In this document: piece by piece, positions 644 to 34,379 of the stretch | How positions within the stretch are numbered: position 1 is the stretch's first letter | How the letters are laid out: every line of letters begins with the position of its first letter | Translations under genes and position numbers: made by a program | DNA from: an uncultured Bacteroidia bacterium | GTDB lineage: Bacteria; Bacteroidota; Bacteroidia; Bacteroidales; F082 | Direction of reading: 5' to 3' | DNA length: 64,000 bases | NCBI GenBank assembly: GCA_902791165.1 | Contig: CADAVB010000008.1 | Location: forward strand, 12,512 to 76,511 | The notes under the pieces: generated by a model | Seen by the model: only the letters and a program-made list of their open reading frames with translations | Told to the model about the DNA's origin: nothing | The model's database searches: none

Positions 644-647
644 AAAA

Positions 648-2339: not shown

Positions 2340-2345
2340 ATACAA

Positions 2346-2420: not shown

Positions 2421-2426
2421 AAAAAC

Positions 2427-6569: not shown

Positions 6570-7778
6570 ATGAAAATAGCTTTAATCAAAGAAACAAAGA
6601 CCCCAGTTGACAACCGCGTGGCACTCGCCCCTAAACAGGTGGCTGAGTTGAACAGACAATTTCCGCAGCATCAGATTGTGCTGCAGTCCAGCGATATCCG
6701 CGCTTTCTCCGATGAAGAGTATCGGGCAGAGGGTGTTGAGGTGTTAAATGATGTCAGCGATGCCGACATCCTTTTCGGCATCAAGGAGGCCAAGATTGAA
6801 AGTTTGATTCCGAACAAGCATTATTTCTTCTTTGGCCATATTGCCAAGATGCAGGAATACAACCGTCCACTGCTGCAGGCATTCATTCAGAAGCATATCA
6901 CCTTCTGTGATTACGAATACCTTGTGGATGACAACAATGTCCGCGTTTGTGCCTTCGGTTGGTGGGCTGGCGTGGTGGGTGCCTATTACACCCTGCGCGG
7001 CTATGGCTTGAAGCACAAGCTTTATGAATTACCCAAGCCCGACCGCCGTTTCACCCTCGACCAGCTGCTGAATGCGCTGAAGAGTGTTGAGCTCCCCAAG
7101 GTGAAACTGATGGTGACAGGTGCAGGTCGTGTCTCTCAAGGAGCACAATATGTGTTGGATAACATCGGTGCCCATAAGATGAGCGAAGAAGAGTATCTTT
7201 CCTGTGATTCGGTGGACCATTTGTCCTATTGTTTCGCCGACGTTGACCGCCTGGTGAAACGCAAGGATGGTGGTGTCTTCTCGTGGAATGATTTCACGCA
7301 CAACGCAAAGGAATACGAAAGCGACTTCATGCGTTGGGCAAAGAAAACCGATGTGTTGGTATGCGCCCATTTCTGGGGACCGGAGGCGCCGGTTTACCTG
7401 AGCGAAGAGGATTTGCGTAACAAGGACATGCGCATCCGTATGATTGGCGATGTGACATGCGACATCAAGGGTAGCATCAAATCAACGGTTCGTCCTGCTA
7501 CACACGATGATCCCTATTATGATTATAACCCAATGACAGAACAGGACGAGCCTGCTTTCTCATCGCCTAATAGCATCTCCGTAATGGCAGTGGACACTTG
7601 CCCGAATGCTTTGGCGATGGATACCAGTGCTTATTTCGGTGAAATGTTGACAAAGCATGTGTTTGAGCCTTTGCTGAAGGGCGAACATTCCGAGGTGATT
7701 GGTCGTTCAATGATTCTGAAAGACGGTATGTTGACACCGAGATTTGATTATTTGACGGATTTTGCTGAAGGCAAATAA
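6570..7778 (+). CDS. Lysine-ketoglutarate reductase / saccharopine dehydrogenase (L-lysine-forming)-like, AlaDH/PNT family
   Basis: YFFFGHIAKMQEYNRPLL, VCAFGWWAGVVGAY and VTGAGRVSQGAQ parallel the LKR domain of AASS as I recall it (FFSHTIKAQEANMGLL, VAFGQWAGVAG, FTGTGNVSKGAQ). Confidence 0.75.
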   Translation: MKIALIKETKTPVDNRVALAPKQVAELNRQFPQHQIVLQSSDIRAFSDEEYRAEGVEVLNDVSDADILFGIKEAKIESLIPNKHYFFFGHIAKMQEYNRPLLQAFIQKHITFCDYEYLVDDNNVRVCAFGWWAGVVGAYYTLRGYGLKHKLYELPKPDRRFTLDQLLNALKSVELPKVKLMVTGAGRVSQGAQYVLDNIGAHKMSEEEYLSCDSVDHLSYCFADVDRLVKRKDGGVFSWNDFTHNAKEYESDFMRWAKKTDVLVCAHFWGPEAPVYLSEEDLRNKDMRIRMIGDVTCDIKGSIKSTVRPATHDDPYYDYNPMTEQDEPAFSSPNSISVMAVDTCPNALAMDTSAYFGEMLTKHVFEPLLKGEHSEVIGRSMILKDGMLTPRFDYLTDFAEGK

Positions 7779-7779
7779 A

Positions 7780-9258
7780 ATGGCTGCAAAAAACTTAAAA
7801 CAAAAAGCTGCATCTGGAATGGTGTGGACCGCCTTTCAGAAGTATTCCAAGATGATTATCCAATTCGTCTCGGGTATCATTTTGGCGCGTCTGCTTACAC
7901 CGTTCGATTATGGTTGCATTGGTATGCTGTCCATCTTTATGGTTTTGGCAGAAAACTTTATTGATGCAGGATTTGGTTCTGCATTGATACAAAAAAAAAG
8001 GCCTACCCAAGAGGATTATTCTACAGTTTTCTGGTGGAATCTAGGGGTAGCTTTTGTAATGTATACAGTTTTGTATTTCTGCGCACCTACTATTTCGCGA
8101 TTTTATGAGATTCCCTTGTTGTCTGATGTTTTGAGGGTAGAAGGTATAGTCTTGTTTATCTATTCGCTTAATATCATCCAACGTAATCAGCTTAAGAAAA
8201 AACTGAATTTTAAGCTGTTGTCGATTATTTCTGTTACTACATCCATTATTGCATTGTGTGTTACTATATTCATGGCTTATAAAGGTCTTGGTGTGTGGGC
8301 GTTAGTGGCACAGAATTTGATTATTGCGGCTATACCATCCTTAGTTTTTTGGTTCTATGTGAAATGGCGTCCTAAAATGGTTTTCTCATGGCGGTCGTTC
8401 AAAGAATTGTTTAGTTTTGGTTTTTATATGTTTCTTTCAAATCTTGTTAATAGTTTTTCGACCCAAGTGACAGGTTTGATTATTGGTAAAGTTTACAACG
8501 CTTCTACATTGGGTTATTATTCTAAAGCGCTTGGAACAGAGAAACTTGCTTCCCATTCCGTTTCTTCAATAATGACCCAAGTAACTTATCCTCTATACGC
8601 TGAAGTTCAAGACGATAAACCAGCACTAATTAACATGATTAAACGATTGTCCATGACTATATCATACATCACTTTTCCCATGATGTTTATTTTAATGTTA
8701 ATTGCGAAGCCGTTGTTCTTATTGCTCTATTCAGAAAAATGGATTCAAAGCATCCCATATTTTCAAGTATTGTGTATTGCTGGTTTGGCGGCTTGTTTGC
8801 AATCGGTAAATGCACAGACTATTTCGGCTATTGGTAAGAGTCGTACAATGTTTATTTGGACCTTTATCAAACGTATTATAGGCTTTACAGCTATGGTTGG
8901 TGGATTGATGTTGTTTGGGATGAAAGGATTGTTGATAGGGGTGATTATCAATGCATGGTTCGCGTATTTTGTCAATACCTCATTAGTGTCTAAACATATA
9001 GGTTATAAACAAGTACAACAATATTTAGACATTGCACCGGTTGCAGTGGCTTCTGTAATAATTGCAGGAATAACATATTTCGGCGTTGGTCTTTTGAATT
9101 TCAACCTATATATGGATGGACTCGTAAAACTAATTGTTTTTCTTGCGCTTTATTTAGGTTGGTCATTCGTTTTCAAACCCGAAGCATATACTTATTTCCT
9201 TACGATAATCCCAGCTCGTTTTCGTTTTTGGGAACGACATAGCAAAACAAAACAATAA
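7780..9258 (+). CDS. wzx: Polysaccharide flippase (Wzx, MOP superfamily)
   Basis: About 12 predicted TM segments and an N-terminal block (WTAFQKYSKMIIQFVSGIILARLLTPFDYG) typical of Wzx. ATG 7780 lies just after the upstream stop. Confidence 0.8.
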   Translation: MAAKNLKQKAASGMVWTAFQKYSKMIIQFVSGIILARLLTPFDYGCIGMLSIFMVLAENFIDAGFGSALIQKKRPTQEDYSTVFWWNLGVAFVMYTVLYFCAPTISRFYEIPLLSDVLRVEGIVLFIYSLNIIQRNQLKKKLNFKLLSIISVTTSIIALCVTIFMAYKGLGVWALVAQNLIIAAIPSLVFWFYVKWRPKMVFSWRSFKELFSFGFYMFLSNLVNSFSTQVTGLIIGKVYNASTLGYYSKALGTEKLASHSVSSIMTQVTYPLYAEVQDDKPALINMIKRLSMTISYITFPMMFILMLIAKPLFLLLYSEKWIQSIPYFQVLCIAGLAACLQSVNAQTISAIGKSRTMFIWTFIKRIIGFTAMVGGLMLFGMKGLLIGVIINAWFAYFVNTSLVSKHIGYKQVQQYLDIAPVAVASVIIAGITYFGVGLLNFNLYMDGLVKLIVFLALYLGWSFVFKPEAYTYFLTIIPARFRFWERHSKTKQ

Positions 9259-9272: not shown

Positions 9273-10004
9273 ATGAGTAATTTCATGGATTTATTAAAAT
9301 CAAATGTGACAAAAACCATTTGGTTCAACTTTAAAATGCTTCCTTGGAAACAAGCAATTCGTTTGCCTGTAGTGTTTTATGGAAGAGTCAGTTTTCGATC
9401 ATTGAAAGGGATAGTCTCTATAAAAGGTGGGGTATCAACAGGAATGATTAAAATTGGAGTGAATCAATATGTTGATACAGGAGTACCAGAGAGCATTTGG
9501 ATTATTGATGGCATAATGAAGTTTAATGGACCAATGAAAATGGCAAGAGGTTCCTATATTCATGTAGCAAAAAACGCTACATTGTCTATAGGTTCTGTTG
9601 GTACGTTCTTTGGATCTAATCTGCGAATCTTATGTTGGGATAAGATTACTTTTGGGAATAGTGTCAGAATTACATGGGATTGCCAGTTTTATGATACGAG
9701 TTTTCATTATATAGAATCGTTGGACCCCACCAAAGATATTAAATCTTTGACAAAACCCGTTTCAATAGGCGATAGAGTTTGGATAGGTAATCGAACAACA
9801 ATTTCTAAAGGAGCAATGATTCCAGACGATACCATTGTGGCATCGAATAGTTTGGTAAATAAGGATTTTTCTGATATAGGTCCATATTGTATGCTGGCAG
9901 GAATGCCAGCGGTGGTTAAAACTAAAGAGATTAGGAGGATCTTTGATGTCAAGAAACAAACTCAACTTGACAAACAATTTGGATACCAAAGGCATAAATT
10001 ATAA
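9273..10004 (+). CDS. Hexapeptide-repeat (left-handed beta-helix) acyl/acetyltransferase
   Basis: IGDRVWIGNRTTISKGAMIPDDTIVASNSLVNKD hexapeptide repeats. Confidence 0.7.
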   Translation: MSNFMDLLKSNVTKTIWFNFKMLPWKQAIRLPVVFYGRVSFRSLKGIVSIKGGVSTGMIKIGVNQYVDTGVPESIWIIDGIMKFNGPMKMARGSYIHVAKNATLSIGSVGTFFGSNLRILCWDKITFGNSVRITWDCQFYDTSFHYIESLDPTKDIKSLTKPVSIGDRVWIGNRTTISKGAMIPDDTIVASNSLVNKDFSDIGPYCMLAGMPAVVKTKEIRRIFDVKKQTQLDKQFGYQRHKL

Positions 10005-10018
10005 AAAACATATAATAT

Positions 10019-11083
10019 ATGAATTTATTCTTTTGTGGTGATATTATGCCAGGAGGTGTTTTGCCCTATCAAAGCAAATATATTACTCCAGAACTGCAGG
10101 ACTATATGCGAAGCTTTGATTTCCGTATCGGAACATTGGAAGCTGCTATTGGAACAAACATGCCGTATGATCCCGTTAAAATGGCAGGGAGGCAAAATAT
10201 CATCTATGCCCGAAATGAAGATTTTTCGAGAATCAAGGAGATGGGGTTTGATGTCGTTTCTTTAGCTAATAACCATGTATGGGATTTGGGCGAAGAAGGG
10301 TTGAAGAATACAATTGACATCATAAACCAAGCAAATATCAAATATTTAGGAGCGGGAATGAATGGAGATGCTGCTTCCAAACCTGTCATTTTGAATAAAG
10401 GTGGGGTGTGTGTCGCTATTTTTGCTTATTGTCTTGGGCCTAAATATTTAGGATATGTCGAGTTTGCAGGAAAAGACAAAGCTGGGACTAACCCTTTCGA
10501 CCTGGAAAAGGTGAAAGAAGAGATAAAAAATGCTAAAAAGGAGTATGAATATGTCATAGTAATGCCACATTGGGGGTTAGAGTATCACATGGAACCACGT
10601 CGAGAATGCATGTTTTTTGCTAAACAAATGATTATGGCTGGTGCAGATGCTGTGTTGGGTAGTCATCCCCACGTGGCTCAGCCTTGTGTCAAATACAAAC
10701 ATGGTTTCATCTGCTATAGTATGGGTAACTTTTTGTTCCCCGATTTTTATATGTATCCCCCTCGACCTATTTGGTATCCCGATTCATCAGTTGATTTGTC
10801 TCAAATCGAAGACATTTTCACTTATCCATATCCCATTGAAAAACCACAAAGAAGAGTTTGGAAAAAAACTTCACGATATGGATGCGTTGCACATGTGACA
10901 ATCGAAAAAGAATGCTTTGATGTGACGTACAAATATGTCAAATTATCTCAAGATAATGTTGTGGGACTGACCGATTTAGATAATGATGTTAGGAAATCAT
11001 TGTCTAAAGCAACATTGTTGTCCAAAAATAGCTTTATTCGGCGTCTTGTCTTCTTGAAAAGAAGAATGATAAATAAATATTAG
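10019..11083 (+). CDS. CapA-family protein (PGA_cap metallophosphatase-like), paralogue 1
   Basis: GDIMPGG, SLANNHVWDLGEEG, GAGMN, VMPHWGLEY, GADAVLGSHPHV and YSMGNFLFPD are CapA/PgsA signature blocks. Confidence 0.85.
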   Translation: MNLFFCGDIMPGGVLPYQSKYITPELQDYMRSFDFRIGTLEAAIGTNMPYDPVKMAGRQNIIYARNEDFSRIKEMGFDVVSLANNHVWDLGEEGLKNTIDIINQANIKYLGAGMNGDAASKPVILNKGGVCVAIFAYCLGPKYLGYVEFAGKDKAGTNPFDLEKVKEEIKNAKKEYEYVIVMPHWGLEYHMEPRRECMFFAKQMIMAGADAVLGSHPHVAQPCVKYKHGFICYSMGNFLFPDFYMYPPRPIWYPDSSVDLSQIEDIFTYPYPIEKPQRRVWKKTSRYGCVAHVTIEKECFDVTYKYVKLSQDNVVGLTDLDNDVRKSLSKATLLSKNSFIRRLVFLKRRMINKY

Positions 11084-11086
11084 ATT

Positions 11087-12223
11087 ATGAAAACCAATAA
11101 AATTCTGTTATTCATGGGAAGGATGTTCGGGAAGATAAGCTCAAAAGCTTTCTTTCTAAAGAATGTCTGTTTCCGCAAAGCATACGATTTGAAGGAATTG
11201 AAAACAAAGGACAAGCTTTCCAAAGGCAAACCCGTTGACAAAGCTGCGATTAAGCAAATATGGAATGGTATTCGTGTTAATGATATATGGAGCAGATATT
11301 ATAACGGAATAGAACGAGAAACAAATGATGCGTTTGACGCCAGATATATTCCGTTGGATATGGAAGCGTGTTTTATTGACGATTGGTTTAATAACACAAA
11401 TGCAGCCCTTGCAATTGATGATAAGAACATGTATGACATGTATTTTCATGATGTGAATATGCCTAAAACGGTTGGCCGTATTATCAATCGCACGTTTTTC
11501 GACGATAATTATCATCTGATTTCCATTGACTCCCTGATAGATCGTTGTTCGTTGGCAAAACATGTGATTATGAAACCTTCCATTGGTACAATGGCGGGGC
11601 ATGGCATCGTTTTTTGGAATGAGGAAGAAGGCTTGGACGTGTTGAAAAAGTTTTTGCAAGAGCATGACAATTATATTATTCAAGAGCTTATTCATCAACA
11701 TGAAGAAATCAACAAAATATATTCACAAAGTGTAAATTCAATTCGTATTGTCACCTGTAACTTCAAAGGGAAAACAGAAGTGTTGTCAGCGGTCATTCGT
11801 TTAGGCCAAGGGGGTAACAAATTGGATAATGCCAGTCAAGGAGGTCTGTTCTGTGGAATCAATGAAGATGGGACATTAAAGAAATTTGGATATTCAAAAT
11901 ATGGTGAAACATGCACAGTTCACCCGCAAGGAGCTGTGTTCGCCGATTGCCGCATCCCTAATTTTGATAAGTGTAAAGAACTCGTCATTGATTTGTCCAA
12001 TCGTTTTTTGAGGATTTCAAAACTGATTTCTTGGGATTTGGCTGTGGATGAGAACGGTGAACCGACAATCATTGAAGTTAATCTTTGCTATGGAGGTACG
12101 GACATTCACCAGATTGCCAACGGGCCGCTGTTTGGCGACAAAACTGAAGAAGTGCTGGATAGTGTTTTCAGAAAACAGAGGAAATACAGAGTTGCAAATA
12201 GAATATTAAGCATTTACGGATGA
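11087..12223 (+). CDS. Sugar-transfer-associated ATP-grasp ligase (ATPgrasp_ST family), paralogue 1
   Basis: SVNSIRIVT, RLGQGGNKLDNASQGGLFCGINEDG, HPQG, WDLAVDENGEPTIIEVN. Confidence 0.8.
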   Translation: MKTNKILLFMGRMFGKISSKAFFLKNVCFRKAYDLKELKTKDKLSKGKPVDKAAIKQIWNGIRVNDIWSRYYNGIERETNDAFDARYIPLDMEACFIDDWFNNTNAALAIDDKNMYDMYFHDVNMPKTVGRIINRTFFDDNYHLISIDSLIDRCSLAKHVIMKPSIGTMAGHGIVFWNEEEGLDVLKKFLQEHDNYIIQELIHQHEEINKIYSQSVNSIRIVTCNFKGKTEVLSAVIRLGQGGNKLDNASQGGLFCGINEDGTLKKFGYSKYGETCTVHPQGAVFADCRIPNFDKCKELVIDLSNRFLRISKLISWDLAVDENGEPTIIEVNLCYGGTDIHQIANGPLFGDKTEEVLDSVFRKQRKYRVANRILSIYG

Positions 12224-13329
12224 TACGTATTATTGGAGTCGGTGATATTATGCCTGGAGGACTTCTCCATGGTTCAGATCAACAATTTGTTTCAGATCAA
12301 GTGCTGTCTTTGTTGAATCAAGGGGATCTTCGAGTAGGTACCTTGGAATGTGCAATAGGGAACACACCTGATTTCATTGAAGAAAAGATGTCAAGATATG
12401 GAGACGTGGTGTATGTCCCTGACGCAGATTTGAAACGGATCAAGGAGCTGAATATGGATATGGTTAGTTTGGCAAACAATCATTTTTTTGATCTGAAGGT
12501 GTCTGGTGCCAACCATACCATTCAGTTGCTGGATGAATATGGTATTAAACATAGCGGTGCTGGGATGAATCTGGAAGAAGCCCGTAAACCTGCTGTTTTC
12601 AATATAAGAGGAAAATCCGTCGCAGTCTTGGCATTTTGTGATGTCCATAAGTATATGGGGTATATCCCAATTGCAAAAAGTAATTGTGCCGGCGTTAACC
12701 CCTTGGACGAAGCTTATGCGCTCGGTGAAATAAAGAATGCAAAAAAGCAATATGATTATGTGGTTGTGATGCCGCATTGGGGTAGGGAACACACCTTCGA
12801 GACAACCCTTTGGTGTTATCAAATGGCAAAGAAAATGTTCAAAGCAGGTGCAGATTTGGTTTTAGGCAGTCATCCTCACCGCGTACAAGCAGTCGTGAAT
12901 AAACATGGAAAATCTGTTGCTTATAGTATGGGCAATTTTTGTTTTCCGGACAGGTTGATAGCACCTCCTTTAAGATCCACCTATTATACAGAAGAAAGCA
13001 TCGAACTAGAAAAGCTTCCTGTAACATATAAATATCCTGCGGTTGAAGAGATTACTTATAAGAAATGGATCCCTTTGGCTCGATATGGCATGATTGTGTC
13101 AACCACAATCGACAACCATAGGATTGATTCAGAATTTCGTCTTACGCATATTGATGAAAACAACTTCATAGATTTCGCTGATCGCAATTCTGAGATAGAA
13201 AAAGGTTTGTCAAAATATCATTTTCTTTTAAACCATACGCCATATAGTTTTGTGTTACCTTTAAAAAACAAAGTAAGCTCTTTTGTAAGCCGGTTTTATT
13301 CCACCAAGCATAAAGAAAATAATAAGTAA
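12220..13329 (+). CDS. CapA-family protein, paralogue 2
   Basis: It has the same blocks as paralogue 1 (GDIMPGG, SLANNHFFDL, GAGMN, VMPHWGREH, GADLVLGSHPH, YSMGNFCFPD). ATGA overlap with the upstream gene. Confidence 0.85.
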   Translation: MIRIIGVGDIMPGGLLHGSDQQFVSDQVLSLLNQGDLRVGTLECAIGNTPDFIEEKMSRYGDVVYVPDADLKRIKELNMDMVSLANNHFFDLKVSGANHTIQLLDEYGIKHSGAGMNLEEARKPAVFNIRGKSVAVLAFCDVHKYMGYIPIAKSNCAGVNPLDEAYALGEIKNAKKQYDYVVVMPHWGREHTFETTLWCYQMAKKMFKAGADLVLGSHPHRVQAVVNKHGKSVAYSMGNFCFPDRLIAPPLRSTYYTEESIELEKLPVTYKYPAVEEITYKKWIPLARYGMIVSTTIDNHRIDSEFRLTHIDENNFIDFADRNSEIEKGLSKYHFLLNHTPYSFVLPLKNKVSSFVSRFYSTKHKENNK

Positions 13330-13342
13330 TTGAATTATAAAA

Positions 13343-14431
13343 ATGAAAAAACCACGTTCATTCTTAAGAACAATAAAATCTGCAAAAAAGGATTTCATGC
13401 TCCTTTACAAAACAGGGAGACATCAAGTTTTTTCCCGCTTCCGCAAATATAGAAAATTGCGTTCTTCAAAAAAAATGAAGATAGAAGAGTTTATAAACTA
13501 TGAAGAAGCATTGAAAGATAAAGAATTCTGTGAAACATTTTTGACTTTTAGAGAAGCGTGGGGCTATTGGAAGGTGTTGAACCCTTCTGGATATTATGCA
13601 TTGGCGAAGGATAAATATATCTCCCATTTGTTACTTGAAAAGGAAGGTGTTCCGACTCCCGAATTATATGCCTATTATCATCCGGAAAAGGGGAAATCTG
13701 GCTTTGAGGCGTTAAGAAAGGAGTTGGAGTCAAAAAATGTGCAATCATGTGTGGTCAAGCCTGCTGTTGACGGTGCTCATGGTGCAGGGGTTTTTGTGTG
13801 TAAAGAGCTGAATTATATGCAGGATGATATTATAATCACAAAATCCAAAGGGGAACAGTTATCATTACGCGATTTCTTCAAGAAAAACAAGTCTACATCG
13901 TGGCTGTTTGAAGAAATTGTGGTTCAAAGTGATCAAATTGGAAGGATTAATCGAAGTTCGGTGAATACGGTAAGGTTTATGACAGCACTTTATCCTGATG
14001 GGAGTGCAAAAGTGTTTGCTACATTTATGAAGATTGGACGTGCTGGCTCTGATGTTGATAATGCTGGAGGTGGAGGTAATGTGGATTGTGCAATTAATAT
14101 TGAAACAGGGGAATGCTATAATGCGCTTCAGTTCAATTCATATACCGATGTGAAAAAAGTTAACAACCATCCAGATTCTGGAGAAAAGATTAATGGAATA
14201 CACATTGAGAATTGGGAAGAAATCAAAAAACGTCTTTGCGATTACCAAGCTTATATTCCACAATTAAAAGCTATTGGATGGGATGTGGCTTTGACCGACA
14301 AAGGTCCAGTTATTATAGAAATAAACAATTACTGGGATACTACTGGTCAATTGTTCTTGGGTAGAGGCTGGAGAGAAGAGGTGAGGGATTGCTATCTTGC
14401 CTGGAAAGAATACTACGACAATAAAAAGTAA
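13343..14431 (+). CDS. Sugar-transfer-associated ATP-grasp ligase, paralogue 2
   Basis: SSVNTVRFMT, KIGRAGSDVDNAGGGGNVDCAINIETG, HPDSGEKI, GWDVALTDKGPVIIEINN. Confidence 0.8.
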   Translation: MKKPRSFLRTIKSAKKDFMLLYKTGRHQVFSRFRKYRKLRSSKKMKIEEFINYEEALKDKEFCETFLTFREAWGYWKVLNPSGYYALAKDKYISHLLLEKEGVPTPELYAYYHPEKGKSGFEALRKELESKNVQSCVVKPAVDGAHGAGVFVCKELNYMQDDIIITKSKGEQLSLRDFFKKNKSTSWLFEEIVVQSDQIGRINRSSVNTVRFMTALYPDGSAKVFATFMKIGRAGSDVDNAGGGGNVDCAINIETGECYNALQFNSYTDVKKVNNHPDSGEKINGIHIENWEEIKKRLCDYQAYIPQLKAIGWDVALTDKGPVIIEINNYWDTTGQLFLGRGWREEVRDCYLAWKEYYDNKK

Positions 14432-14435
14432 CATT

Positions 14436-15611
14436 ATGAGAAAGACAATAAATAGTCTTGGAGAAACTCGTTATGTAGAGTATCTCCGAATGAAAAATAG
14501 CTGTTATTTAAGATTTCGCAAACTTCTTCACATCATAAGGCATAAGTCGGATTATGTCAATGGTATTTCCTATTATCCAGAATGTGAACATAAATCGAAA
14601 TCTCAAATTCTGAAGGATCAATTACGTTTTGCATGGAAATATGGATATGTCGAGGACTATTATTATACCTACGGTTTCGATCGTAAAGAAATGACACAGG
14701 ATAAGATGGCATCATATATCACGCCATATTATCCATTCTTGCGTAAACTTGATCATTTGAACTTTCAAAATCCCTATTATGACGATTTTAATGGTAGAAT
14801 GACTTGTAGGGTCATTAATCAGGAGAAGTTTTACTTTTACTTGTTCTTAAGTCGTTTGGGAGTACCTACTCCGAAAGTGCTTTGTTTCATAAAAAACAGG
14901 ACCGTTTTGTACGCCAATGAATCCTTTAACATAGATAAGTCTTTGTCTGTGAAAGAACAATTACAGCGTCTTTTCACTAATGACATGGATGCATTTGCAA
15001 AGCCCTCCGATGGAATGTTGGGTAAAGGTATCTTTAAGCTACTCATTAAAGAGGGCAAAATATACATGGATGGAGTCCAACATTCAATGGAGGATTTGAT
15101 AGATGCCGTACTTTCGGCTGACTATCTCATTCAAGAAAGAATAGTCCAGCACGAAAAAATGTCGGCATTGTGTTCATCATCTGTGAACACCATTAGACTC
15201 CAAACCGTCATGGATAAAGATGGTAATGTTATACCTTTTGGGCCTGGAGTTAGAATTGGGCGTATGGGTAGTTCTGTAGATAACTGGGCATTGGGAGGCG
15301 TATTTGTCGGTATAGATGCGGAAACAGAAAAGTTGAAGGATATAGGCATCCTAAAACCCAAATACGGGACAAAAGTCACAGAGCATCCTGATACTCATAT
15401 TGTTTTTAAAGGATACGATATTCCATATTATAAAGAAGCTGAAAATATGGTTGTTAAATTGCACAAAGTGATGTTTCGTAGCCATTCGATAGGTTGGGAT
15501 ATTGCTATTACCAAAAACGGTCCTGTCATCATAGAGGGAAACGACAGGTGGGAGATTTCGTTAATACAGGCCGTTCATGGTGGTATGCGATATTTGTTGA
15601 AGTATTTCTAA
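14436..15611 (+). CDS. Sugar-transfer-associated ATP-grasp ligase, paralogue 3
   Basis: SSVNTIRLQT, RIGRMGSSVDNWALGGVFVGIDAETE, HPDTH, GWDIAITKNGPVIIEGN. ATG 14436 is preferred over the upstream non-ATG start in the track. Confidence 0.8.
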   Translation: MRKTINSLGETRYVEYLRMKNSCYLRFRKLLHIIRHKSDYVNGISYYPECEHKSKSQILKDQLRFAWKYGYVEDYYYTYGFDRKEMTQDKMASYITPYYPFLRKLDHLNFQNPYYDDFNGRMTCRVINQEKFYFYLFLSRLGVPTPKVLCFIKNRTVLYANESFNIDKSLSVKEQLQRLFTNDMDAFAKPSDGMLGKGIFKLLIKEGKIYMDGVQHSMEDLIDAVLSADYLIQERIVQHEKMSALCSSSVNTIRLQTVMDKDGNVIPFGPGVRIGRMGSSVDNWALGGVFVGIDAETEKLKDIGILKPKYGTKVTEHPDTHIVFKGYDIPYYKEAENMVVKLHKVMFRSHSIGWDIAITKNGPVIIEGNDRWEISLIQAVHGGMRYLLKYF

Positions 15612-15644
15612 TTGGATCACGATTATTATTATTTATCCTTGAAT

Positions 15645-16463
15645 ATGATGCGTATTATAATAAATGCTGATGATTTCGGAAAGAGTCCTATACGAAACAA
15701 GGCCATTGATGATGCATTTAAACAAGGGATGGTCTCTTCTGTTGGTACTATTGTGACAGGTAAATATTTTCAAGATGCTATAAATAAAGCAGATAAAGGG
15801 GGGTATTTAGATAAGTTGCATTTGCATTTCAATTTTGCAGCCAATTCATTGCAAGAAAAATCAGAAGATGCACCTTTGACAGAAGCCATGAAAAAAGATT
15901 CCGTTTTCAGTAAAGAAGGAAAGTTTAAAGAATACAAAGGATTGTCGAAAAGAATATCTGACATCAGAAAATGGAGAGTCGTGTATAATGAAATGGTTGC
16001 TCAATATAACTTTTTCAAAGAAGCGACCAAGGGAAAGGCAGATTACAAACACATCGATTTTCATTTATGGTATAACCTGACAGGAGCAGCCTCGATTGCA
16101 TTGAATCTTTTCACAAGGAAATATAAAATAGATTCAGTTCGATATTGGCCTATCTCTTATTGGAAGAAAAGAAGGTATAGATTATTCCGTGTTCTAGGTT
16201 GGAATCCTCGTGTAAAAAGTATTCCGGCTTGTAGTATCTTTTATTTTCTAACGAAAAGGCAATCGCTTTCTAATTATAAAATTGTTGAATTGTTTTGTCA
16301 CCCAAATTATAAAGATGGGATGTTTATTGATGACACGCCATCGTATTTATACAAAGATAGACGTCCAATGCAGACACAAATTACAGAGTTGAGAGGTTTG
16401 GAGTGTGTCGAATTTGTTTCATGGGAAGAAGTTTACTGTTGTGTAACTGACCCTAAACAATAA
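15645..16463 (+). CDS. YdjC/ChbG-family carbohydrate deacetylase
   Basis: MRIIINADDFGKSPIRNKAIDDAFKQGMVSSVGTIV is the canonical YdjC N-terminus (ADDFG). An internal ATG is preferred as the start. Confidence 0.75.
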   Translation: MMRIIINADDFGKSPIRNKAIDDAFKQGMVSSVGTIVTGKYFQDAINKADKGGYLDKLHLHFNFAANSLQEKSEDAPLTEAMKKDSVFSKEGKFKEYKGLSKRISDIRKWRVVYNEMVAQYNFFKEATKGKADYKHIDFHLWYNLTGAASIALNLFTRKYKIDSVRYWPISYWKKRRYRLFRVLGWNPRVKSIPACSIFYFLTKRQSLSNYKIVELFCHPNYKDGMFIDDTPSYLYKDRRPMQTQITELRGLECVEFVSWEEVYCCVTDPKQ

Positions 16464-16478
16464 TAAAACAAATAAGTA

Positions 16479-17651
16479 ATGGATAAAAAAATCAGCATTT
16501 TCTTTGCTGGCGATTTTTGTTCAAAACCTTCCACTTCGAAGATTTCCGTTTCCGACAAATTGAAGAGTTTGATACAGTCTTGCGATTTGAAAGTAGTGAA
16601 TTTTGAGGTTCCTTTGAATCCTAATAATACTTTATCACTACAGCAACGCGAACGGTTTTGGCAGAATGATGATGCACCATGTTTTCTTCGAAGTCTTGGT
16701 TTTAATTTGTTTTCCATCGCCAACAATCATGCCTTCGATTGGGGCGAAGAAGGCTTCAAGAAAACGAAAACGGCCCTAGGTGATGATGCCTTTGGGGCTG
16801 GCACATACGAAGAAGCCTATAAACCAAAGATTGTGGAAGTGGATGGGATAAAGATTGGATTCCTTGGCTTGTCGTTTGCTGCTTATACAGGCGTTTTTGA
16901 CGATATTACCAAACACGATGGATTGGGTTGCGCCTACATTAACGACCTCAAAGTGAACCATGTCATCATAGAGGCAAAAAAGGAAGTGGATTATCTTTTC
17001 GTTTTGCCGCACGACGGCATTGAATATATTGATATTCCGATGCCTGAAACCATTGCCCGTTATCGCGATTTCATCGACTATGGGGCTGATGGTGTAATTG
17101 CTGCCCATCCACATTGTCCGCAAGGATGGGAAGAATACAACGGAAAGCCTATTTTCTATAGTCTTGGCAACTTCCTTTTCAACAGCAAAGAAGGCTATGA
17201 GTATCGCGCCACCAATCGCCCGCATTGGTACGAAGGTCTTTGCGTTGTGATGACCCTTGGCGATGGAAAACTGACCTGGGAAGTGGTGAATACAAGGAAT
17301 GTGGATAATGTTGGAATCGAAATCGACCATGACGAAGCACGCAACAAGCACAATGAAACCATTTGCCAGTATTTGACCAACAAGGACAAATATAACTCAT
17401 ATCTGAAAAATATTTGTAATGATTTGGGTATGAGGGAGATACTTATTATTGACAAGACAATACATCCACAGTCATTGAAAGAGTGTACCAAGTTATTGCT
17501 TGCCTGTTGGAAAGACAAACTCATAGGGAAAAACAAGACTAACGACTATTCACTATTGCGCCTGCTCACCCATGACGCAAGGCGGAATCTGCTGATGTGG
17601 ACAATAAAAATAAATGAGACTAATAAACCATTGATATGTTTGGTAAATTAA
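16479..17651 (+). CDS. CapA-family protein, paralogue 3
   Basis: FAGDF, SIANNHAFDWGEEG, GAG, VLPHDGIEY, GADGVIAAHPHC, YSLGNFLFN. Confidence 0.8.
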   Translation: MDKKISIFFAGDFCSKPSTSKISVSDKLKSLIQSCDLKVVNFEVPLNPNNTLSLQQRERFWQNDDAPCFLRSLGFNLFSIANNHAFDWGEEGFKKTKTALGDDAFGAGTYEEAYKPKIVEVDGIKIGFLGLSFAAYTGVFDDITKHDGLGCAYINDLKVNHVIIEAKKEVDYLFVLPHDGIEYIDIPMPETIARYRDFIDYGADGVIAAHPHCPQGWEEYNGKPIFYSLGNFLFNSKEGYEYRATNRPHWYEGLCVVMTLGDGKLTWEVVNTRNVDNVGIEIDHDEARNKHNETICQYLTNKDKYNSYLKNICNDLGMREILIIDKTIHPQSLKECTKLLLACWKDKLIGKNKTNDYSLLRLLTHDARRNLLMWTIKINETNKPLICLVN

Positions 17652-18712
17652 GAAAACGGCTCGCCAAAAAGCGCGAGATGAAAAAATGGGAGGTGCGCAT
17701 TACCAAGAACTTTAAAGACTTGGAGCATCATCGCAAACTTACTAAAGAACAGGAAAAGGAAGTACAAGACTTCTATATGGATATGATTGGTAAGAAGGTC
17801 CCGCTCTATTGCCATGAGTATTTCTATTCGCGCACTGGGCACTTTACTAAAGAGTATGTTCCCAACAATATTTATCATTGTGAACTTGTACCGAAAGCCA
17901 ACCAACACCGCCTTCAGGGTGCTTTCGGTGACAAAAACATGTGCGACTTCCTATTTCCGGGAGAGAACATCGTTCATTCCATTCTGAAAAACATGAATGG
18001 CTATTATTATTTTGAGGGGAAGCCTGTCTCGGAAGAGGAAGCCGTTTCTCTGTGTCAAAATTTGGAAAAGGTTATTATCAAACCTTCGCGTCAGTCGGAA
18101 GGACACGGAGTACAGATGTTTAGTGCTAAAAATGGTGTAACAGACCTTAATGGGAAAACTGTAGCTCAATTGTTTAAGGAGTACAAGAAAGATTTTTTGG
18201 TACAGGATTGGGTACGGCAACATGAAGGAATGGCTGCGTTGAATCCTACTTCTGTGAACACTATGCGAATCCTGTCTTATCGTTCTGGTATGGAAGTGCT
18301 AATTATCTATTCAGTGGTTCGCATTGGACGTAATGGTTCGGTGGTCGACAACCAATGTGCCGGTGGAATCAGCACTACAATCGACAAGGAAGGTAGGCTG
18401 GGTAAAGAAGCTTTTGGCGGTTTTAGTACAGACAATATTGATAAGACGGACACAGGTATATTATTGGAAGGCTATCAATTGCCGTCCTACGACAAAGCCA
18501 TAGAGATGGTGAAACGTCTCCATTTGAAACTACCCTTCTTCAACCTTGTGGGTTGGGATGTGGCCATTCAAGAAAATGGTGAGCCTGTGCTTATTGAATT
18601 CAATACCAACCCTGGCTTGAGCCAATCGGCATTTAAGTCAGGCATGGGCGAATACACGGAGAGAATTATACGGGAACTTTGGCCGAGGCCGAATACACGT
18701 TTTTCTGATTAA
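17636..18712 (+). CDS. Sugar-transfer-associated ATP-grasp ligase, paralogue 4
   Basis: TSVNTMRILS, RIGRNGSVVDNQCAGGISTTIDKEG, GWDVAIQENGEPVLIEFN. It overlaps the CapA-3 stop by 16 nt. Confidence 0.8.
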   Translation: MFGKLRKRLAKKREMKKWEVRITKNFKDLEHHRKLTKEQEKEVQDFYMDMIGKKVPLYCHEYFYSRTGHFTKEYVPNNIYHCELVPKANQHRLQGAFGDKNMCDFLFPGENIVHSILKNMNGYYYFEGKPVSEEEAVSLCQNLEKVIIKPSRQSEGHGVQMFSAKNGVTDLNGKTVAQLFKEYKKDFLVQDWVRQHEGMAALNPTSVNTMRILSYRSGMEVLIIYSVVRIGRNGSVVDNQCAGGISTTIDKEGRLGKEAFGGFSTDNIDKTDTGILLEGYQLPSYDKAIEMVKRLHLKLPFFNLVGWDVAIQENGEPVLIEFNTNPGLSQSAFKSGMGEYTERIIRELWPRPNTRFSD

Positions 18713-18718: not shown

Positions 18719-20545
18719 ATGCTTCGTAAAATAAGACACTATCTATTCTCCATTTACTATTTGGCATTAGTGTTTGTTTTGTGCTTTTGTAAAAAAGATT
18801 CACAATATACGAAAGGACTCGAAACAAATGCAGACGGGGTGGAAGCCTACGTTGAGGCCTTGAATGAGAATATCAAGAATTTGCAGCAACTGGTACAATT
18901 ATATTCTAATGGGCAGAGTTTGATTACCCGTTTCGATTATGATAAGAAAGAGGATTCGTATCGTTTCACATTCACATCAGGAGAAGTGTTGCGATTTTCC
19001 AATATGAAGACTTTTCCCGATTTTGATTGTCCATTGGTTTCTGTAGTTTTGGACGATAGCGTGTATTTGTGGACAATCAATGACGACTTGGCTAGAGATG
19101 GCGAAAAACATCCTATTGAGGTCAATGGCTCCAATTGTTTGCCTCAATTGAAGTTTTCTGATGGAACTTGGTATTGGCAAACAAACACAATAGACTATTA
19201 CACTATCACCAATACCAAAAAGGAATCCAAGCCCTTTTTCTGTTTTGAAACGGACGAAGGTTGCATCATCTTGGTTTTGCCGACGGAGTGCGCATTTATC
19301 CTTCCTATTTATGATGAGATTACAAACGTTTGTGCATACATCCCCAACAAGGCTTTTTACAAAAACGTGTTTTTGGATGCTGGCATTGGACTCACCTCGA
19401 GAAAGAATTTGGCTGCGGTGACCCATCTTGGTCTTTCGTTGGAATGTATGAGCTTCTCGTCACAAGCAGATAAAGAACTTCAGAACCAGATTGTTGAGGG
19501 GGAAACGACCGATTTGAACGGCCGCCTTTTGTATCCTGATTGGCAACCAAGATACCAATTGTTGTTTGTCAATGGAGGTAATGCCAAGACCCACGCAAAG
19601 TCATTGACCGAAGGTGCACGGCGCAATATGCAACAATTTAATTGGTCTGGAGGCAGCTATATTGGAACTTGCGCAGGAGCTTTTTTTGCTTCTTATGGCG
19701 CTTATGGGCCAACGATCAATGCGGATTATTTAAATATTTGGCCACAATTTGTAAGACGCACACATTTGTCGCAAACTCAAACTGGATTTATCATAGAACC
19801 AAACTCTCCGTTGTTGGACTATTATGATTTTGGAGGCGATATGTATGTTGGGAATGTTCGCCATAATGGAGGCTGTTTCCCTATGGATCTTCCTCAGAAT
19901 GGCGAAGTTTTGGCCCGTTACGATTATCCCGAACTAGATTCGATGCATCTACAGCCTTCGGCATGGGCCTACAAAAACGGTCCATTTATGGGGAGGGTTA
20001 TCCAAATAGGCTCTCATCCCGAAGAAGTTAGCACTGGGGAAAGGAGAGATTTTACTGCGGCTTCCGTATTGTATGCTATTGATGGATGCGGAAAAACAAA
20101 GACTAAAGGTGTTCTACAAAACGGAGTGGGGCGTTTTATGAACAAATCCACAGAAGACAAGGATCCAGACTATACTATGATAGGAGATCTTCAATGCCAT
20201 CATTTTTGCGTTTATATTCCAAAAAACGCAAGCGACATTATTTTTAAATTGCAATGCGATTGGGACGTTGACTTTTCTTTGATGATTAATAAAGGATCTG
20301 CCGCTTATGAAGAAAGTGCCCAATACGTTTCTTCCGCTGTAGGGGCAAACAAAACTTTGAGATTCTCTAAATTAAGTTCGGGATGGTGGTATGTGGGAGT
20401 GAAGTGTAATACAACAGTTACTATCTCCGAAACAGATTGGGGCCAAGAATACACTGGACGAACGGATGTGCTCAATGGTGTCCCATACAGCATAAAAGTG
20501 AATTGGAGCACTTTGGTTGAGCAGTCTTACTTAAACAAAAAATAG
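18719..20545 (+). CDS. Secreted/lipoprotein candidate with a class-I glutamine-amidotransferase-like (BPL_N-like) domain and a C-terminal PPC-type beta-sandwich
   Basis: N-terminal hydrophobic signal ending ...VLCFCKKDS. Nucleophile-elbow-like GGSYIGTCAGAFFAS. The C-terminal GDLQCHHFCVYIP...WDVDFSLMIN...GWWYVGVKC resembles pre-peptidase C-terminal domains. Confidence 0.5.
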   Translation: MLRKIRHYLFSIYYLALVFVLCFCKKDSQYTKGLETNADGVEAYVEALNENIKNLQQLVQLYSNGQSLITRFDYDKKEDSYRFTFTSGEVLRFSNMKTFPDFDCPLVSVVLDDSVYLWTINDDLARDGEKHPIEVNGSNCLPQLKFSDGTWYWQTNTIDYYTITNTKKESKPFFCFETDEGCIILVLPTECAFILPIYDEITNVCAYIPNKAFYKNVFLDAGIGLTSRKNLAAVTHLGLSLECMSFSSQADKELQNQIVEGETTDLNGRLLYPDWQPRYQLLFVNGGNAKTHAKSLTEGARRNMQQFNWSGGSYIGTCAGAFFASYGAYGPTINADYLNIWPQFVRRTHLSQTQTGFIIEPNSPLLDYYDFGGDMYVGNVRHNGGCFPMDLPQNGEVLARYDYPELDSMHLQPSAWAYKNGPFMGRVIQIGSHPEEVSTGERRDFTAASVLYAIDGCGKTKTKGVLQNGVGRFMNKSTEDKDPDYTMIGDLQCHHFCVYIPKNASDIIFKLQCDWDVDFSLMINKGSAAYEESAQYVSSAVGANKTLRFSKLSSGWWYVGVKCNTTVTISETDWGQEYTGRTDVLNGVPYSIKVNWSTLVEQSYLNKK

Positions 20546-20546: not shown

Positions 20547-21140
20547 ATGGCAAGTCAAGAAATTCAAATCACGGAAAAGCCCGAGTGGGTTTCTTGGGAT
20601 GATATTCACGAAGTTTTGTGGCAGGCACATTCCAAGAACCGAGAAGAAGGGGTTGTCATGCGTTATCCATCGCTGCCTGGTGAAGAGATTCGGAAAAGAG
20701 TCGAGGGAAAAGGAAAGATGTTTGTAGCCATTTTGAGCGAAAAACTGATAGGTACTTCAGCAGTTATTTTCAAGGACAAGTCTCTTTGGTGTGGAAAAGG
20801 GAAATACGCATATTGTTGTTTCGATTCGGTATTGCCCCAGTTGCAAGGTACGGGCGTTTACAGGAAACTATGTCAAAAAAGGGAAGAGTTCGTAAAAAAC
20901 GAGGGCGTTTCACGAATGCTGTTAGACACGAATGAGTCCAATAACCGAGAAAAAATCGTTGTTGTCAAAGCAGGCTTTAAACCTGTTGATTTGGTTTGGT
21001 GGACAGATCATTACAATGTCGTTTTTGTCAAGTGGCTTAATGGCTGTCCGCTCTCGGATTTCAGGTGTAAGTTAGGTTTTTCAGTGAGGAAAATAATGGT
21101 GAAAACCAAACGGTTTATTAAAACATTGTTCAAGGGTTAA
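20547..21140 (+). CDS. GNAT-family N-acetyltransferase
   Basis: Acetyl-CoA-binding motif LPQLQGTGVYRKL, GNAT-like length and beta-strand pattern. Confidence 0.65.
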   Translation: MASQEIQITEKPEWVSWDDIHEVLWQAHSKNREEGVVMRYPSLPGEEIRKRVEGKGKMFVAILSEKLIGTSAVIFKDKSLWCGKGKYAYCCFDSVLPQLQGTGVYRKLCQKREEFVKNEGVSRMLLDTNESNNREKIVVVKAGFKPVDLVWWTDHYNVVFVKWLNGCPLSDFRCKLGFSVRKIMVKTKRFIKTLFKG

Positions 21141-30913: not shown

Positions 30914-30939
30914 AATAACTATAAACTCTCAAATTATAA

Positions 30940-33032: not shown

Positions 33033-33034
33033 AA

Positions 33035-34378: not shown

Positions 34379-34379
34379 T

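Follow-up and report, generated by a model that had tools for sequence, protein, structure and literature searches.

Three CapA-family genes and four ATP-grasp ligase genes stand in tandem in a predicted capsule locus of an uncultured gut or rumen bacterium of the Bacteroidales (contig CADAVB010000008.1), and this arrangement occurs far beyond chance. The array occupies positions 10019-18712 of the 64,000-nucleotide stretch of DNA that we analysed (the window), in the order CapA1-AG1-CapA2-AG2-AG3-YdjC-CapA3-AG4, where AG1 to AG4 are ligases of the ATPgrasp_ST family and YdjC is a deacetylase-like gene. A fifth ATPgrasp_ST gene (AG5) and two other ATP-grasp ligase genes (AGx1 and AGx2) lie downstream. 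We consider the array to be beyond chance on three grounds: other genomes have it too, their CapA and ligase genes are paired by type, and the two are also found as gene fusions. Judged by sequence and by structural models, the CapA proteins are most likely soluble, single-metal amino-acid epimerases of the MslH type, and the ATPgrasp_ST proteins are most likely amide ligases resembling RimK and LysX. The best explanation of the array that we can offer, which we hold tentatively and put at a little under an even chance, is that a ligase adds an amino acid to a carboxylate of a lipid-linked capsule unit and that the cognate CapA inverts the added residue to the D form.

A first-pass annotation of the open reading frames (ORFs) had proposed the same gene order, and Pfam confirmed it, with PGA_cap found in CapA1-3, ATPgrasp_ST in AG1-5, and both of the other ATP-grasp ligases in their places. 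The ORFs lie where that annotation put them except for two starts, which the gene call on an identical contig moves to 14436 (AG3) and 15645 (YdjC). The ATGA overlap at 12220 and the 16-nt overlap at 17636 are real, and a further ATGA at 28154 joins AG5 to the priming transferase gene. The motif blocks that had been recognised in the CapA and ATP-grasp proteins are also real and correspond to catalytic residues. The interpretation built on them is partly supported: a modular, predicted amino-acid-decorating gene set within a capsule locus holds up, but the role given to CapA, and the rule that one dyad adds one residue, do not.

Conservation of the CapA-ligase pairing

To describe the occurrence of the array, loci were collected in a CapA-seeded scan of one genome per species, and their ORFs were scored with hidden Markov models built from the window paralogues. 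The scan yielded 80 loci. The 12 nearest, from uncultured Bacteroidales, Prevotella and Rikenellaceae, mostly of the rumen, form the near set; the distant set comprises 68 loci with 70 CapA genes (Bacillus, Chloroflexi, deltaproteobacteria and others). An ATPgrasp_ST gene stands beside CapA in 11 of the 12 nearest loci, often in multi-copy arrays, whereas none of the 70 distant CapA genes has one within 10 kb. The sole near locus without a ligase, L012, carries a CapA2-type gene at 9938-11071; its plus-strand run appears to break right after CapA and is followed by ORFs on the opposite strand, which suggests that this locus is rearranged or truncated.

A scan of metagenomes seeded with the ligases, for which a narrower alignment was used, gave a sample skewed to AG4-, AG3- and AG2-like genes. 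Among the 38 loci of at least 12 kb in this sample, 27 have at least two ligases and 19 have CapA. Arrays of two to five ligases without CapA are common, and 19 of the 38 long loci have no CapA gene. Tandem ligase arrays are commoner than CapA-ligase dyads. Because such CapA-free arrays are common and ligases outnumber CapA, CapA is best regarded as an optional tailoring partner. Capsule-type CapA genes lie no more than 150 nt from a ligase gene on the same strand in 16 of 20 and 17 of 23 cases, and the arrays run on one strand in 90 of 91 loci.

The pairing is specific with respect to gene type. Each gene was assigned to a type by its best match among the window paralogues, and pairs more than 90% identical were removed. 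The type of a CapA gene agrees with the type of the next ligase downstream in 21 of 23 non-redundant pairs, a value reached in none of 10,000 permutations: CapA1 is followed by AG2 (four cases) or AG1 (two), CapA2 by AG3 (7 of 7) and CapA3 by AG4 (10 of 10). The ligase upstream is far less specific (13 of 20; 403 of 10,000 permutations), and the unit is therefore CapA then ligase. These units are shuffled elsewhere, for example as CapA1-AG2-CapA3-AG4, CapA2-AG3-AG3-AG4 and AG4-CapA2-AG3-CapA3-AG4. The order in the window is atypical, in that CapA2 is followed by AG2 and only afterwards by its usual partner AG3. The repeated dyad of the first-pass annotation therefore stands, and is found outside this genome (as the near set, the type pairing and the fusions described below all attest), but its unit is a CapA gene followed by a specific type of ligase, and the window shows it partly scrambled (CapA2-AG2-AG3). 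A fourth, divergent CapA type usually has a GNAT acetyltransferase gene before it and, in 10 of 14 assessable cases, an AGx1-type ligase, which belongs to another ATP-grasp family, after it; the window has GNAT-AGx1 without this CapA. In a rough tree, the CapA genes of loci that carry both families fall into at least five deep clades. Recent tandem duplication was considered as an origin of the array and is ruled out by the identity among paralogues, 24-40%, and by the deep clades shared across genomes.

CapA and ligase also occur as single proteins. An exhaustive HMMER search with CapA1 over 1.84 billion representatives returned 24,046 relatives at E ≤ 1e-3, of which 197 reached E ≤ 1e-30. 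Two of the top matches, P0293 (744 aa) and P0307 (724 aa), are of double length, with PGA_cap in the N-terminal and ATPgrasp_ST in the C-terminal half according to Pfam; they keep the gene order of the dyad, and the catalytic motifs are intact in both halves. P0293 was found on five contigs. The P0307 cluster has seven fused members of 710-724 aa on many ENA and Logan contigs, and two more fused clusters are 68% and 65% identical to P0307, one of them on more than 20 contigs, so that PGA_cap::ATPgrasp_ST fusions form at least four clusters on dozens of contigs. The N-terminal half of P0307 is of the CapA2 type (48% identical to CapA2), and its ligase half is closest to AG3; the N-terminal domain of P0293 is of the CapA1 type. 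There are thus at least two independent fusions, and this architecture has persisted through considerable divergence. In its genomic setting, the fused gene is accompanied by more ATPgrasp_ST genes, by an AlaDH/PNT gene directly upstream, and by a hexapeptide acyltransferase and a MatE-like flippase nearby. Gene fusions are classical evidence of joint function, and these suggest that the CapA and ligase activities serve one sequence of pathway steps on one substrate.

The CapA family has other architectures as well, namely tandem double PGA_cap proteins (about 680 aa), PGA_cap-TPR proteins and PGA_cap joined to glycoside hydrolase family 25 (P0345, P0354, P0472, P0481, P0487, P0521 and P0545). 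To judge from these domain combinations, the family is employed in several contexts besides polyglutamate.

The CapA proteins and their ligase partners

With PGA_cap (PF09587), whose cut-off is 27 bits, CapA1, CapA2 and CapA3 score 208, 189 and 152, respectively. CapA1 and CapA2 are 40% identical, and each is 30% identical to CapA3. Residues D8, E41, N85, H86, D89, H184, E188, H216 and H218 (CapA1 numbering) are kept in all three, and the signature that they form, GD-x-M ... E ... NNH..D ... H-x-G-x-E ... H-x-H, is present in 23 Bacteroidales-type and about 40 classical CapA sequences.

Several lines of evidence point to MslH as the closest characterised relative of these proteins. In a sequence search for CapA relatives of solved structure, only the MslH entries (the 8GQ9 series) were found, with an overall identity of about 19%. 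An AlphaFold2 model of CapA1 (predicted local distance difference test score, pLDDT, 92) matched MslH in Foldseek with an E-value of 2e-19 and a template-modelling (TM) score of 0.70, query-normalised, the C-terminal cover domain included. The second-best fold family, 5'-nucleotidases and phosphoesterases, followed ten orders of magnitude behind (5e-9, TM 0.41). MslH depends on Ca(II) and epimerises the C-terminal tryptophan in the precursor of the lasso peptide MS-271; it holds the free C-terminal carboxyl of its substrate on Ca(II), where the enolate is stabilised, and its acid/base pairs are H88/D91 and H295/D11 (PMC10406935). These pairs align to H86/D89 and H218/D8 of CapA, and the Ca(II) ligands E44, N87 and H259 align to E41, N85 and H184; all of these residues are invariant in CapA. 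The first motif, GD-x-M in CapA, reads GDCM in MslH. The DxH histidine of two-metal phosphoesterases occurs in 0 of 63 CapA sequences (which have M, C, A or I at position 10), and in place of phosphoesterase motif II, GD-x-x-DR, the same 63 sequences, classical and Bacteroidales-type, have a single Glu. CapA1-3 and MslH (PDB 8GQ9; PMC10406935, PMC8179263) are thus alike in the PGA_cap family, the fold, both His/Asp pairs and three of four Ca ligands. Their contexts differ: MslH is encoded in a lasso-peptide cluster, alongside a precursor peptide and a leader-binding protein, whereas CapA1-3 lie in capsule loci beside ATP-grasp ligases.

The discoverers of MslH put CapA forward as the epimerase of poly-gamma-glutamate (PGA) (PMC8179263). 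Without pgsA, the PGA of B. subtilis is rich in the L form, with a D/L ratio of 5/95 as against 75/25 (PMC6029982), which links Bacillus PgsA genetically to D-residue content. The PgsA/CapA proteins of the Bacillus PgsBCA/CapBCA systems are like CapA1-3 in their family, in their identical catalytic signature and in being teamed with an ATP-dependent amide ligase. They differ in an N-terminal extension that is often hydrophobic and in their partners, which are the Mur-ligase-type PgsB together with PgsC; the window proteins have ATP-grasp partners, look soluble and occur in several diverged copies per locus. In CapA1-3 the PGA_cap domain begins at residue 2 and no hydrophobic segment was found (no 19-mer at a Kyte-Doolittle value of 1.6). 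An N-terminal extension is present in 0 of 20 Bacteroidales CapA, while in classical CapA it has a median of 61 residues and is hydrophobic in 41 of 72. Neither PgsB nor PgsC had a match among the 40 main-strand proteins of at least 100 aa that the family scans covered (positions 31-45928). A classical PGA system was accordingly rejected, given CapA without an anchor and no PgsB or PgsC among the genes scanned, and with it the suggestion of the first-pass annotation that CapA acts here as it does in the PGA synthesis and export complex.

The ligases AG1-4 match ATPgrasp_ST (PF14397) with 143-166 bits and AG5 with 81 bits, at a cut-off of 31.4. They are 24-34% identical to one another, and K139, R211, N240, GG, D314, E326 and N328 (AG2 numbering) are invariant in the five paralogues and 43 homologues. 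A search of the Protein Data Bank (PDB) with the AG2 sequence gave no match. The nearest NCBIfam models of the window ligases, AG2 among them, are RimK-related alpha-L-glutamate ligases, all below cut-off, and the best PDB folds for an AlphaFold2 model of AG4 (pLDDT 81) are ArgX/LysX, L-amino-acid ligases and Ddl, with TM scores of 0.4-0.55. In the reactions of RimK, LysX and ArgX, an amino acid is attached to a macromolecule at a carboxylate that the enzyme has activated. Ligation in this direction would leave an N-acylated amino acid with a free alpha-carboxylate, which is the kind of centre that an MslH-type enzyme could invert. A sister domain of the TupA-like family, Cj1438C, amidates glucuronic acid in a capsule (PMC11800379). 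According to Pfam, AG1-5 match ATPgrasp_ST and not ATPgrasp_TupA; a profile comparison of ATPgrasp_ST with the TupA-like protein of one related locus (L085) gave no match, a weak test with its single target sequence.

Like the CapA proteins, AG1-5 have no hydrophobic segment. The N-termini of AG1-4 are strongly basic (net +6 to +15 over 50 residues; +11 in AG1), as are the C-termini of the CapA proteins (net +4 to +7 over 40 residues). These basic ends may make peripheral contact with the membrane or with an anionic, lipid-linked substrate.

A proposed tailoring pathway and its alternatives

The explanation that we favour would have the array tailor the lipid-linked capsule repeat unit in the cytoplasm. 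An ATPgrasp_ST ligase would turn a carboxylate on the growing unit into an acyl-phosphate and couple to it the amino group of an amino acid, which creates a new free alpha-carboxylate. CapA would hold this carboxylate on its metal and invert the alpha-carbon, L to D, of the residue added by its cognate ligase. A CapA gene with its ligase would then amount to a module that adds one D-residue, and a lone ligase to a module that adds one L-residue (or glycine). Each repeat unit would probably come to carry either a short peptide of mixed D and L residues or several amides of amino acids, trimmed or capped by the YdjC, GNAT and hexapeptide acyltransferase enzymes and by a saccharopine-dehydrogenase-like (opine-forming) enzyme. 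The finished unit would be flipped by the co-inherited Wzx and then polymerised by Wzy. What the analysis shows directly is the gene content, the conserved catalytic residues, the similarity of folds, the linkage across genomes, the pairing by type and the fusions; from these we infer the direction of ligation, the epimerase activity, the identity of amino acid and acceptor, and the order of the steps.

We rank addition by the ligase and epimerisation by CapA first because the product of the one matches the requirement of the other, because CapA is optional, and because the pairing is type-specific. Action in the cytoplasm before flipping is suggested by the lack of hydrophobic segments, the basic termini and the shared Wzx type, homologues of the window Wzx being present in 25 of the 32 loci that have both CapA and ligase. 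The seven ATP-grasp ligases of the window compare with about three sugar-adding enzymes (the priming transferase, the GT4 enzyme and perhaps a 367-aa protein, plus LicD), so that a short peptide or several amides per unit are likely; this suggests more than one amino acid per sugar, which makes a short peptide plausible. Xanthomonas offers a parallel in MurD2 and MurL, where the ligase attaches L-Glu to a carboxylate linked to a sugar, and the terminal residue is then turned to D by a separate epimerase. Unlike the proposed array, that pair has a Mur-type ligase and an epimerase of an unrelated family, and it acts in a single step on a peptidoglycan precursor. Among known structures, several O-antigens carry amides of D-allo-threonine, and a Providencia glycan carries an amide of N-epsilon-(1-carboxyethyl)-lysine (PMC7685785, PMC10609480). 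D-allo-threonine is the expected result of inverting the alpha-carbon of L-threonine.

Several observations weigh against this explanation. A homologue search found neither a UDP-sugar 6-dehydrogenase nor a pyruvyl transferase in the 64-kb window, either of which would have supplied the first carboxylate. The position of the fourth MslH Ca ligand, H261, is Gly in every CapA; invariant E188, two residues on, might replace it, but that is a guess. The peptide-gripping G-domain of MslH (141-234, about 90 residues) is skipped in the profile alignment and absent from CapA, so substrate recognition must differ from that of MslH. In vitro epimerase activity of PgsA or CapA is not reported in the literature searched. 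The fold matches of AG4 are weak. YdjC and GNAT would fit equally well if the carboxyl of the amino acid itself were joined to an amine of the sugar, and such a product would be without the free carboxylate that an MslH-type mechanism needs; this reverse direction, with GNAT capping the amino group, is an alternative for some of the ligases, especially AGx2. Finally, the type pairing could in part be inherited synteny rather than functional constraint, although the modules are shuffled.

With regard to the acceptor, source genes for uronic acid or a pyruvate ketal are present in related loci. A good candidate locus for this question is L085 (features at 16841-17737 and 377-1642), which holds two CapA genes, four ATPgrasp_ST genes, one TupA-like ATP-grasp gene, a UDP-sugar 6-dehydrogenase, a pyruvyl transferase and an L-amino-acid-ligase-type gene. 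In the window, the AlaDH/PNT-family dehydrogenase at 6570 has its best PDB sequence matches in the lysine-ketoglutarate reductase domain of AASS (4e-30) and in saccharopine dehydrogenase (4e-13). Enzymes of the lysine-ketoglutarate reductase and saccharopine dehydrogenase type condense an amine with a 2-oxo acid. We speculate that the window enzyme equips a sugar amine, once YdjC has unmasked it, with a carboxylate handle, or else that it makes N-(carboxyalkyl) amino acids such as the N-epsilon-(1-carboxyethyl)-lysine of Providencia. Its gene shows the tightest linkage to the dyad of all the accessory genes, being present in 18 of 32 loci with CapA and ligase as against 5 of 19 ligase-only loci. 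Outside the low-GC capsule locus, a DegT-type sugar aminotransferase gene, named dTDP-4-amino-4,6-dideoxygalactose transaminase by two sources, is followed by a gene for a radical-SAM/BATS protein (38134-41099, plus strand). Together with the small priming transferase, DegT could provide a 4-amino sugar with a free amine, which bears on the acceptor of the ligases.

The alternative that survives best, although we think it improbable, is a ligase followed by a phosphatase, as in Campylobacter jejuni: a phospho-amine such as ethanolamine phosphate or serinol phosphate would be joined to a sugar carboxylate, and CapA would then dephosphorylate it. It has a biochemical precedent in the HS:2 capsule pathway, where amidation by Cj1438C precedes dephosphorylation by Cj1435 (PMC11800379), and where, as proposed for the window, an ATP-grasp amidoligase acts on a capsule sugar carboxylate before chain extension and a dedicated finishing enzyme follows. 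The fold of CapA is calcineurin-like, with 5'-nucleotidases and phosphoesterases as its second-best structural matches, and an optional CapA would be expected if only some amines were phosphorylated. However, CapA is without the DxH histidine and has Glu for the bridging Asp, as in single-metal MslH (PMC10406935), and as a structural match no phosphoesterase comes anywhere near MslH. The Campylobacter system also differs in that its ligase is TupA-like and uses the amine of a phospho-amino-alcohol, its second enzyme is a phosphatase of the unrelated HAD family, and it consists of a single module. Neither a HAD phosphatase nor a pyridoxal-phosphate-dependent decarboxylase or aminotransferase for phospho-amines was found in or next to the array, the nearest aminotransferase being DegT at 38134.

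Slightly less probable again is a homopolymer tail, in which one or more iterative ligases, like RimK or the tubulin glutamylases, would build a tail of oligo- or polyglutamate, or of another poly-amino acid, on the glycan and CapA would scramble its stereochemistry, as has been suggested for PgsA in PGA. The window ligases are weakly similar to the RimK, TTL and YheC/D families, and the name TupA derives from teichuronopeptide, a polymer of glucuronic acid and polyglutamate. RimK attaches up to fifteen glutamates (as cited in PMC4431377), and the CapA family is historically linked to PGA, with its L-rich product in the absence of pgsA (PMC6029982). For iteration, however, five to seven ligases as diverged as these and a type-specific CapA would be superfluous, and distinct substrates or positions fit them better.

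We give still less weight to the reading of the first-pass annotation, that CapA and ligase jointly form a residue-adding machine in which CapA is a structural or elongation partner and each dyad an obligatory elongation module. Adjacency, gene overlaps, type pairing and fusions are all to be expected of a two-subunit enzyme. On the other hand, about half of the long loci have ligase arrays without any CapA, and ligases outnumber CapA seven to three in the window, so the claim that each pair adds one residue fails. The CapA proteins have no membrane anchor, no PgsB/PgsC-like gene accompanies them among the proteins scanned, and the full set of catalytic residues is invariant in CapA, which argues that it performs a catalysis of its own.

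The least likely alternative is that the target is a protein, small peptide or soluble metabolite and that the genes merely reside in a capsule locus: the substrates of RimK, LysX and MslH are all proteins or peptides, and CfmP, an ATP-grasp protein of Klebsiella that is TupA-like, acts on fimbriae independently of surface polysaccharides (PMC13419641), but the arrays are embedded, nearly always on a single strand, among the genes for Wzx, Wzy, glycosyltransferase and priming transferase, they are inherited together with a specific Wzx type, AG5 overlaps the priming transferase gene, the peptide-gripping domain of MslH is absent from CapA, and no conserved small precursor gene was seen, though no systematic search for one was made.

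The ATPgrasp_ST and TupA-like families were reportedly defined by Iyer et al. in 2009. Comparative genomics has predicted that they add amino acids to surface polysaccharides (as cited in PMC13419641), and for linked ligases in O-antigen or teichuronopeptide loci a succession of ligations has been predicted (Burroughs et al. 2015, PMC4431377). Our literature search, which did not cover Iyer et al. 2009, found no paper naming ATPgrasp_ST or PF14397, and none that describes CapA partners as type-specific, reports CapA::ligase fusions or puts forward the epimerase reading for them. Searches that combined MslH or CapA with ATP-grasp returned only reviews of ribosomal peptides, and those on O-antigens with amide-linked amino acids returned structures and no enzymology. 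The type-specific CapA partner and the fusions thus appear to be undescribed, while tandem ligases in glycan loci had already been predicted (PMC4431377). To this extent the novelty asserted by the first-pass annotation stands for the organisation as a whole and not for its tandem ligases; and its statement that the ATP-grasp family is uncharacterised agrees with the literature searched as far as ATPgrasp_ST is concerned, but the sister TupA-like protein Cj1438C has been characterised (PMC11800379).

What CapA/PgsA does has eluded researchers for decades, since PGA synthetase is an unstable membrane complex (PMC8179263). An anchor-free CapA that has the same catalytic residues, and a partner ligase that is identifiable or even fused to it, would allow the epimerase hypothesis to be put to the test on ordinary recombinant proteins. 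If the explanation that we favour is true, many Bacteroidales of rumen and gut have capsules that bear D-amino acids or short peptides, which would matter for recognition by phages, recognition by the immune system and resistance to proteases, and the CapA-then-ligase modules could be used as simple parts for the enzymatic synthesis of D-residue amides. A bolder form of it, which we regard as rather unlikely, holds that rumen and gut Bacteroidales build short D/L peptides resembling the peptidoglycan stem on a lipid-linked capsule unit by means of modules of a RimK-like ligase and its own, sometimes fused, CapA epimerase, possibly on an opine-type carboxylate handle from the saccharopine-dehydrogenase-like enzyme, and that all CapA/PgsA proteins are metal-dependent epimerases of residues with a free alpha-carboxylate. 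If D/L peptides are indeed made, this would be a further route to non-ribosomal peptides with D-amino acids, besides non-ribosomal peptide synthetases and Mur ligases. Even if the epimerase reading is wrong, the conserved pairing and the fusions point to a step in glycan tailoring that involves two enzymes and is as yet uncharacterised.

The capsule locus and its neighbours

The array lies in a low-GC island that makes up the first 30 kb of the window (GC content 0.36-0.43, compared with about 0.50 in the flanks). All genes of the island are on the plus strand, and their content is that of a Bacteroidota Wzx/Wzy capsule locus according to Pfam and NCBIfam (Table 1). Upstream, the longest alternative contig for the locus starts only about 0.8 kb before the window. 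A scan for promoters and terminators gave background levels only, with a sigma-70 consensus that is ill-suited to Bacteroidota.

Table 1. Genes of the capsule locus, with positions in the window.
Feature	Positions	Strand	Basis and remarks
FnlA/B/C-like genes, N-acetyl-6-deoxy-amino sugar	31-3581	+	Pfam/NCBIfam
PD-(D/E)XK_3 (GxxExxY-type) small protein	1971-2339	+	between FnlB-like and FnlC-like genes; kept on identical contigs
Small cytidylyltransferase, glycerol-3-phosphate cytidylyltransferase-like	3609-4025	+	CTP_transf_like 1e-17; NCBIfam g3p_cytidyltrns 2e-15, below cut-off
NsnB/NsnC-like pair, inserted	4418-6384, possibly from ~4143	+	PADLOC NsnB 8e-82 (AAA_15/DUF3696 ATPase); NsnC 9e-60 (294 aa)
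AlaDH/PNT-family dehydrogenase	6570-7778	+	Pfam AlaDh_PNT_N 3e-20
Wzx-type flippase	7819-9258	+	Polysacc_synt_3 2e-92; longest ORF from TTG 7762, gene call on identical contig L001 from 7819
Hexapeptide-repeat acyltransferase	9273-10004	+	Pfam Hexapep 5e-6, just under gathering score
CapA1, PGA_cap / MslH-like	10019-11083	+	PGA_cap 2e-61
AG1, ATPgrasp_ST amide ligase (predicted)	11087-12223	+	ATPgrasp_ST 3e-42
CapA2, PGA_cap / MslH-like	12220-13329	+	PGA_cap 1e-55; start overlaps AG1 stop (ATGA)
AG2, ATPgrasp_ST amide ligase (predicted)	13343-14431	+	ATPgrasp_ST 4e-45
AG3, ATPgrasp_ST amide ligase (predicted)	14436-15611	+	ATPgrasp_ST 1e-48; ATG 14436 favoured over TTG 14397 (L001 gene call)
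YdjC-family deacetylase-like	15645-16463	+	YdjC 5e-23; chitin disaccharide deacetylase model 5e-14, below cut-off; N-terminal NADDFG motif
CapA3, PGA_cap / MslH-like	16479-17651	+	PGA_cap 4e-44
AG4, ATPgrasp_ST amide ligase (predicted)	17636-18712	+	ATPgrasp_ST 1e-41; ATG 16 nt inside CapA3
Lipoprotein-like protein, 608 aa, DUF4988 + BPL_N (glutamine-amidotransferase-like)	18719-20545	+	Pfam
GNAT acetyltransferase	20547-21140	+	Acetyltransf_1 7e-8; 14/32 loci
AGx1, carbamoyl-phosphate-synthase-like ATP-grasp ligase (weak)	21143-22378	+	NCBIfam PRK12767-like 1e-10
LicD-family phosphotransferase	22371-23225	+	LicD 2e-40; 13/32 loci
367-aa protein, glycosyltransferase candidate by position only	23232-24335	+	no family match
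Wzy-type polymerase	24345-25526	+	Wzy_C 5e-9
GT4 glycosyltransferase	25745-26956	+	Glycos_transf_1 2e-13
AG5, divergent ATPgrasp_ST ligase	26976-28157	+	ATPgrasp_ST 1e-22; stop overlaps priming transferase start (ATGA)
Small priming phosphoglycosyl transferase	28154-28756	+	Bac_transf 6e-67
AGx2, L-amino-acid-ligase / PylC / Ddl-like ATP-grasp	28769-29995	+	ATP-grasp_4 4e-16, LAL_C2; NCBIfam PylC and archaeal Ddl-like below cut-off

Several accessory genes recur in the 32 loci with CapA and ligase. YdjC homologues are present in seven (in the window, an alternative start at 15612 precedes the one called on the identical contig), as are homologues of the hexapeptide acyltransferase, one of which sits between CapA1-type and AG2-type genes in locus L084. 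The cytidylyltransferase has homologues in eight, and also in L083 and L084; together with LicD it probably adds a phospho-linked substituent. AGx1 has a homologue in a 400-aa gene of L083 (3e-127), and an AGx2-like gene stands at the end of L085. For the 367-aa protein at 23232, no Pfam, NCBIfam or PDB sequence match was obtained, lenient thresholds included.

The 608-aa BPL_N/DUF4988 protein begins with MLRKIRHYLFSIYYLALVFVLCFCKK and has a lipoprotein-like signal, …LALVFVLCFCKK; it is the sole predicted exported protein within the tailoring block. Its homologues occur in 5 of 32 loci, adjoining the AlaDH-like gene in L084, and it had no sequence match in the PDB.

The NsnB/NsnC-like pair splits the capsule locus, with the cytidylyltransferase gene on one side of it and the AlaDH-like gene on the other, and is present in 0 of 51 related loci examined. 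By its family matches it looks like a candidate anti-phage defence pair, and a 90-aa ORF just upstream of it on the identical contig might be a third component.

Just downstream of the capsule locus, at a GC content of 0.50, a plus-strand run of genes for organic-acid enzymes (30017-36935) encodes a 298-aa protein, a TIM-barrel C-C bond lyase, an aldo-keto reductase, an MmgE/PrpD dehydratase, a small thiamine-pyrophosphate enzyme and the two halves of an enzyme like class-I fumarase or tartrate dehydratase. Searches gave no family assignment for the 298-aa protein, and the lyase has homologues in just 3 of 32 related loci. These enzymes are candidates for supplying an unusual acid to the capsule pathway. 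Beyond them, a DUF3990 protein (37322-37798, plus strand) matches the PADLOC candidate defence families PDC-M13B and PDC-M10A (1e-42), and an N6/N4 DNA methylase followed by an 881-aa ResIII helicase-type protein (41608-45928, plus strand) forms a type III-like restriction-modification pair.

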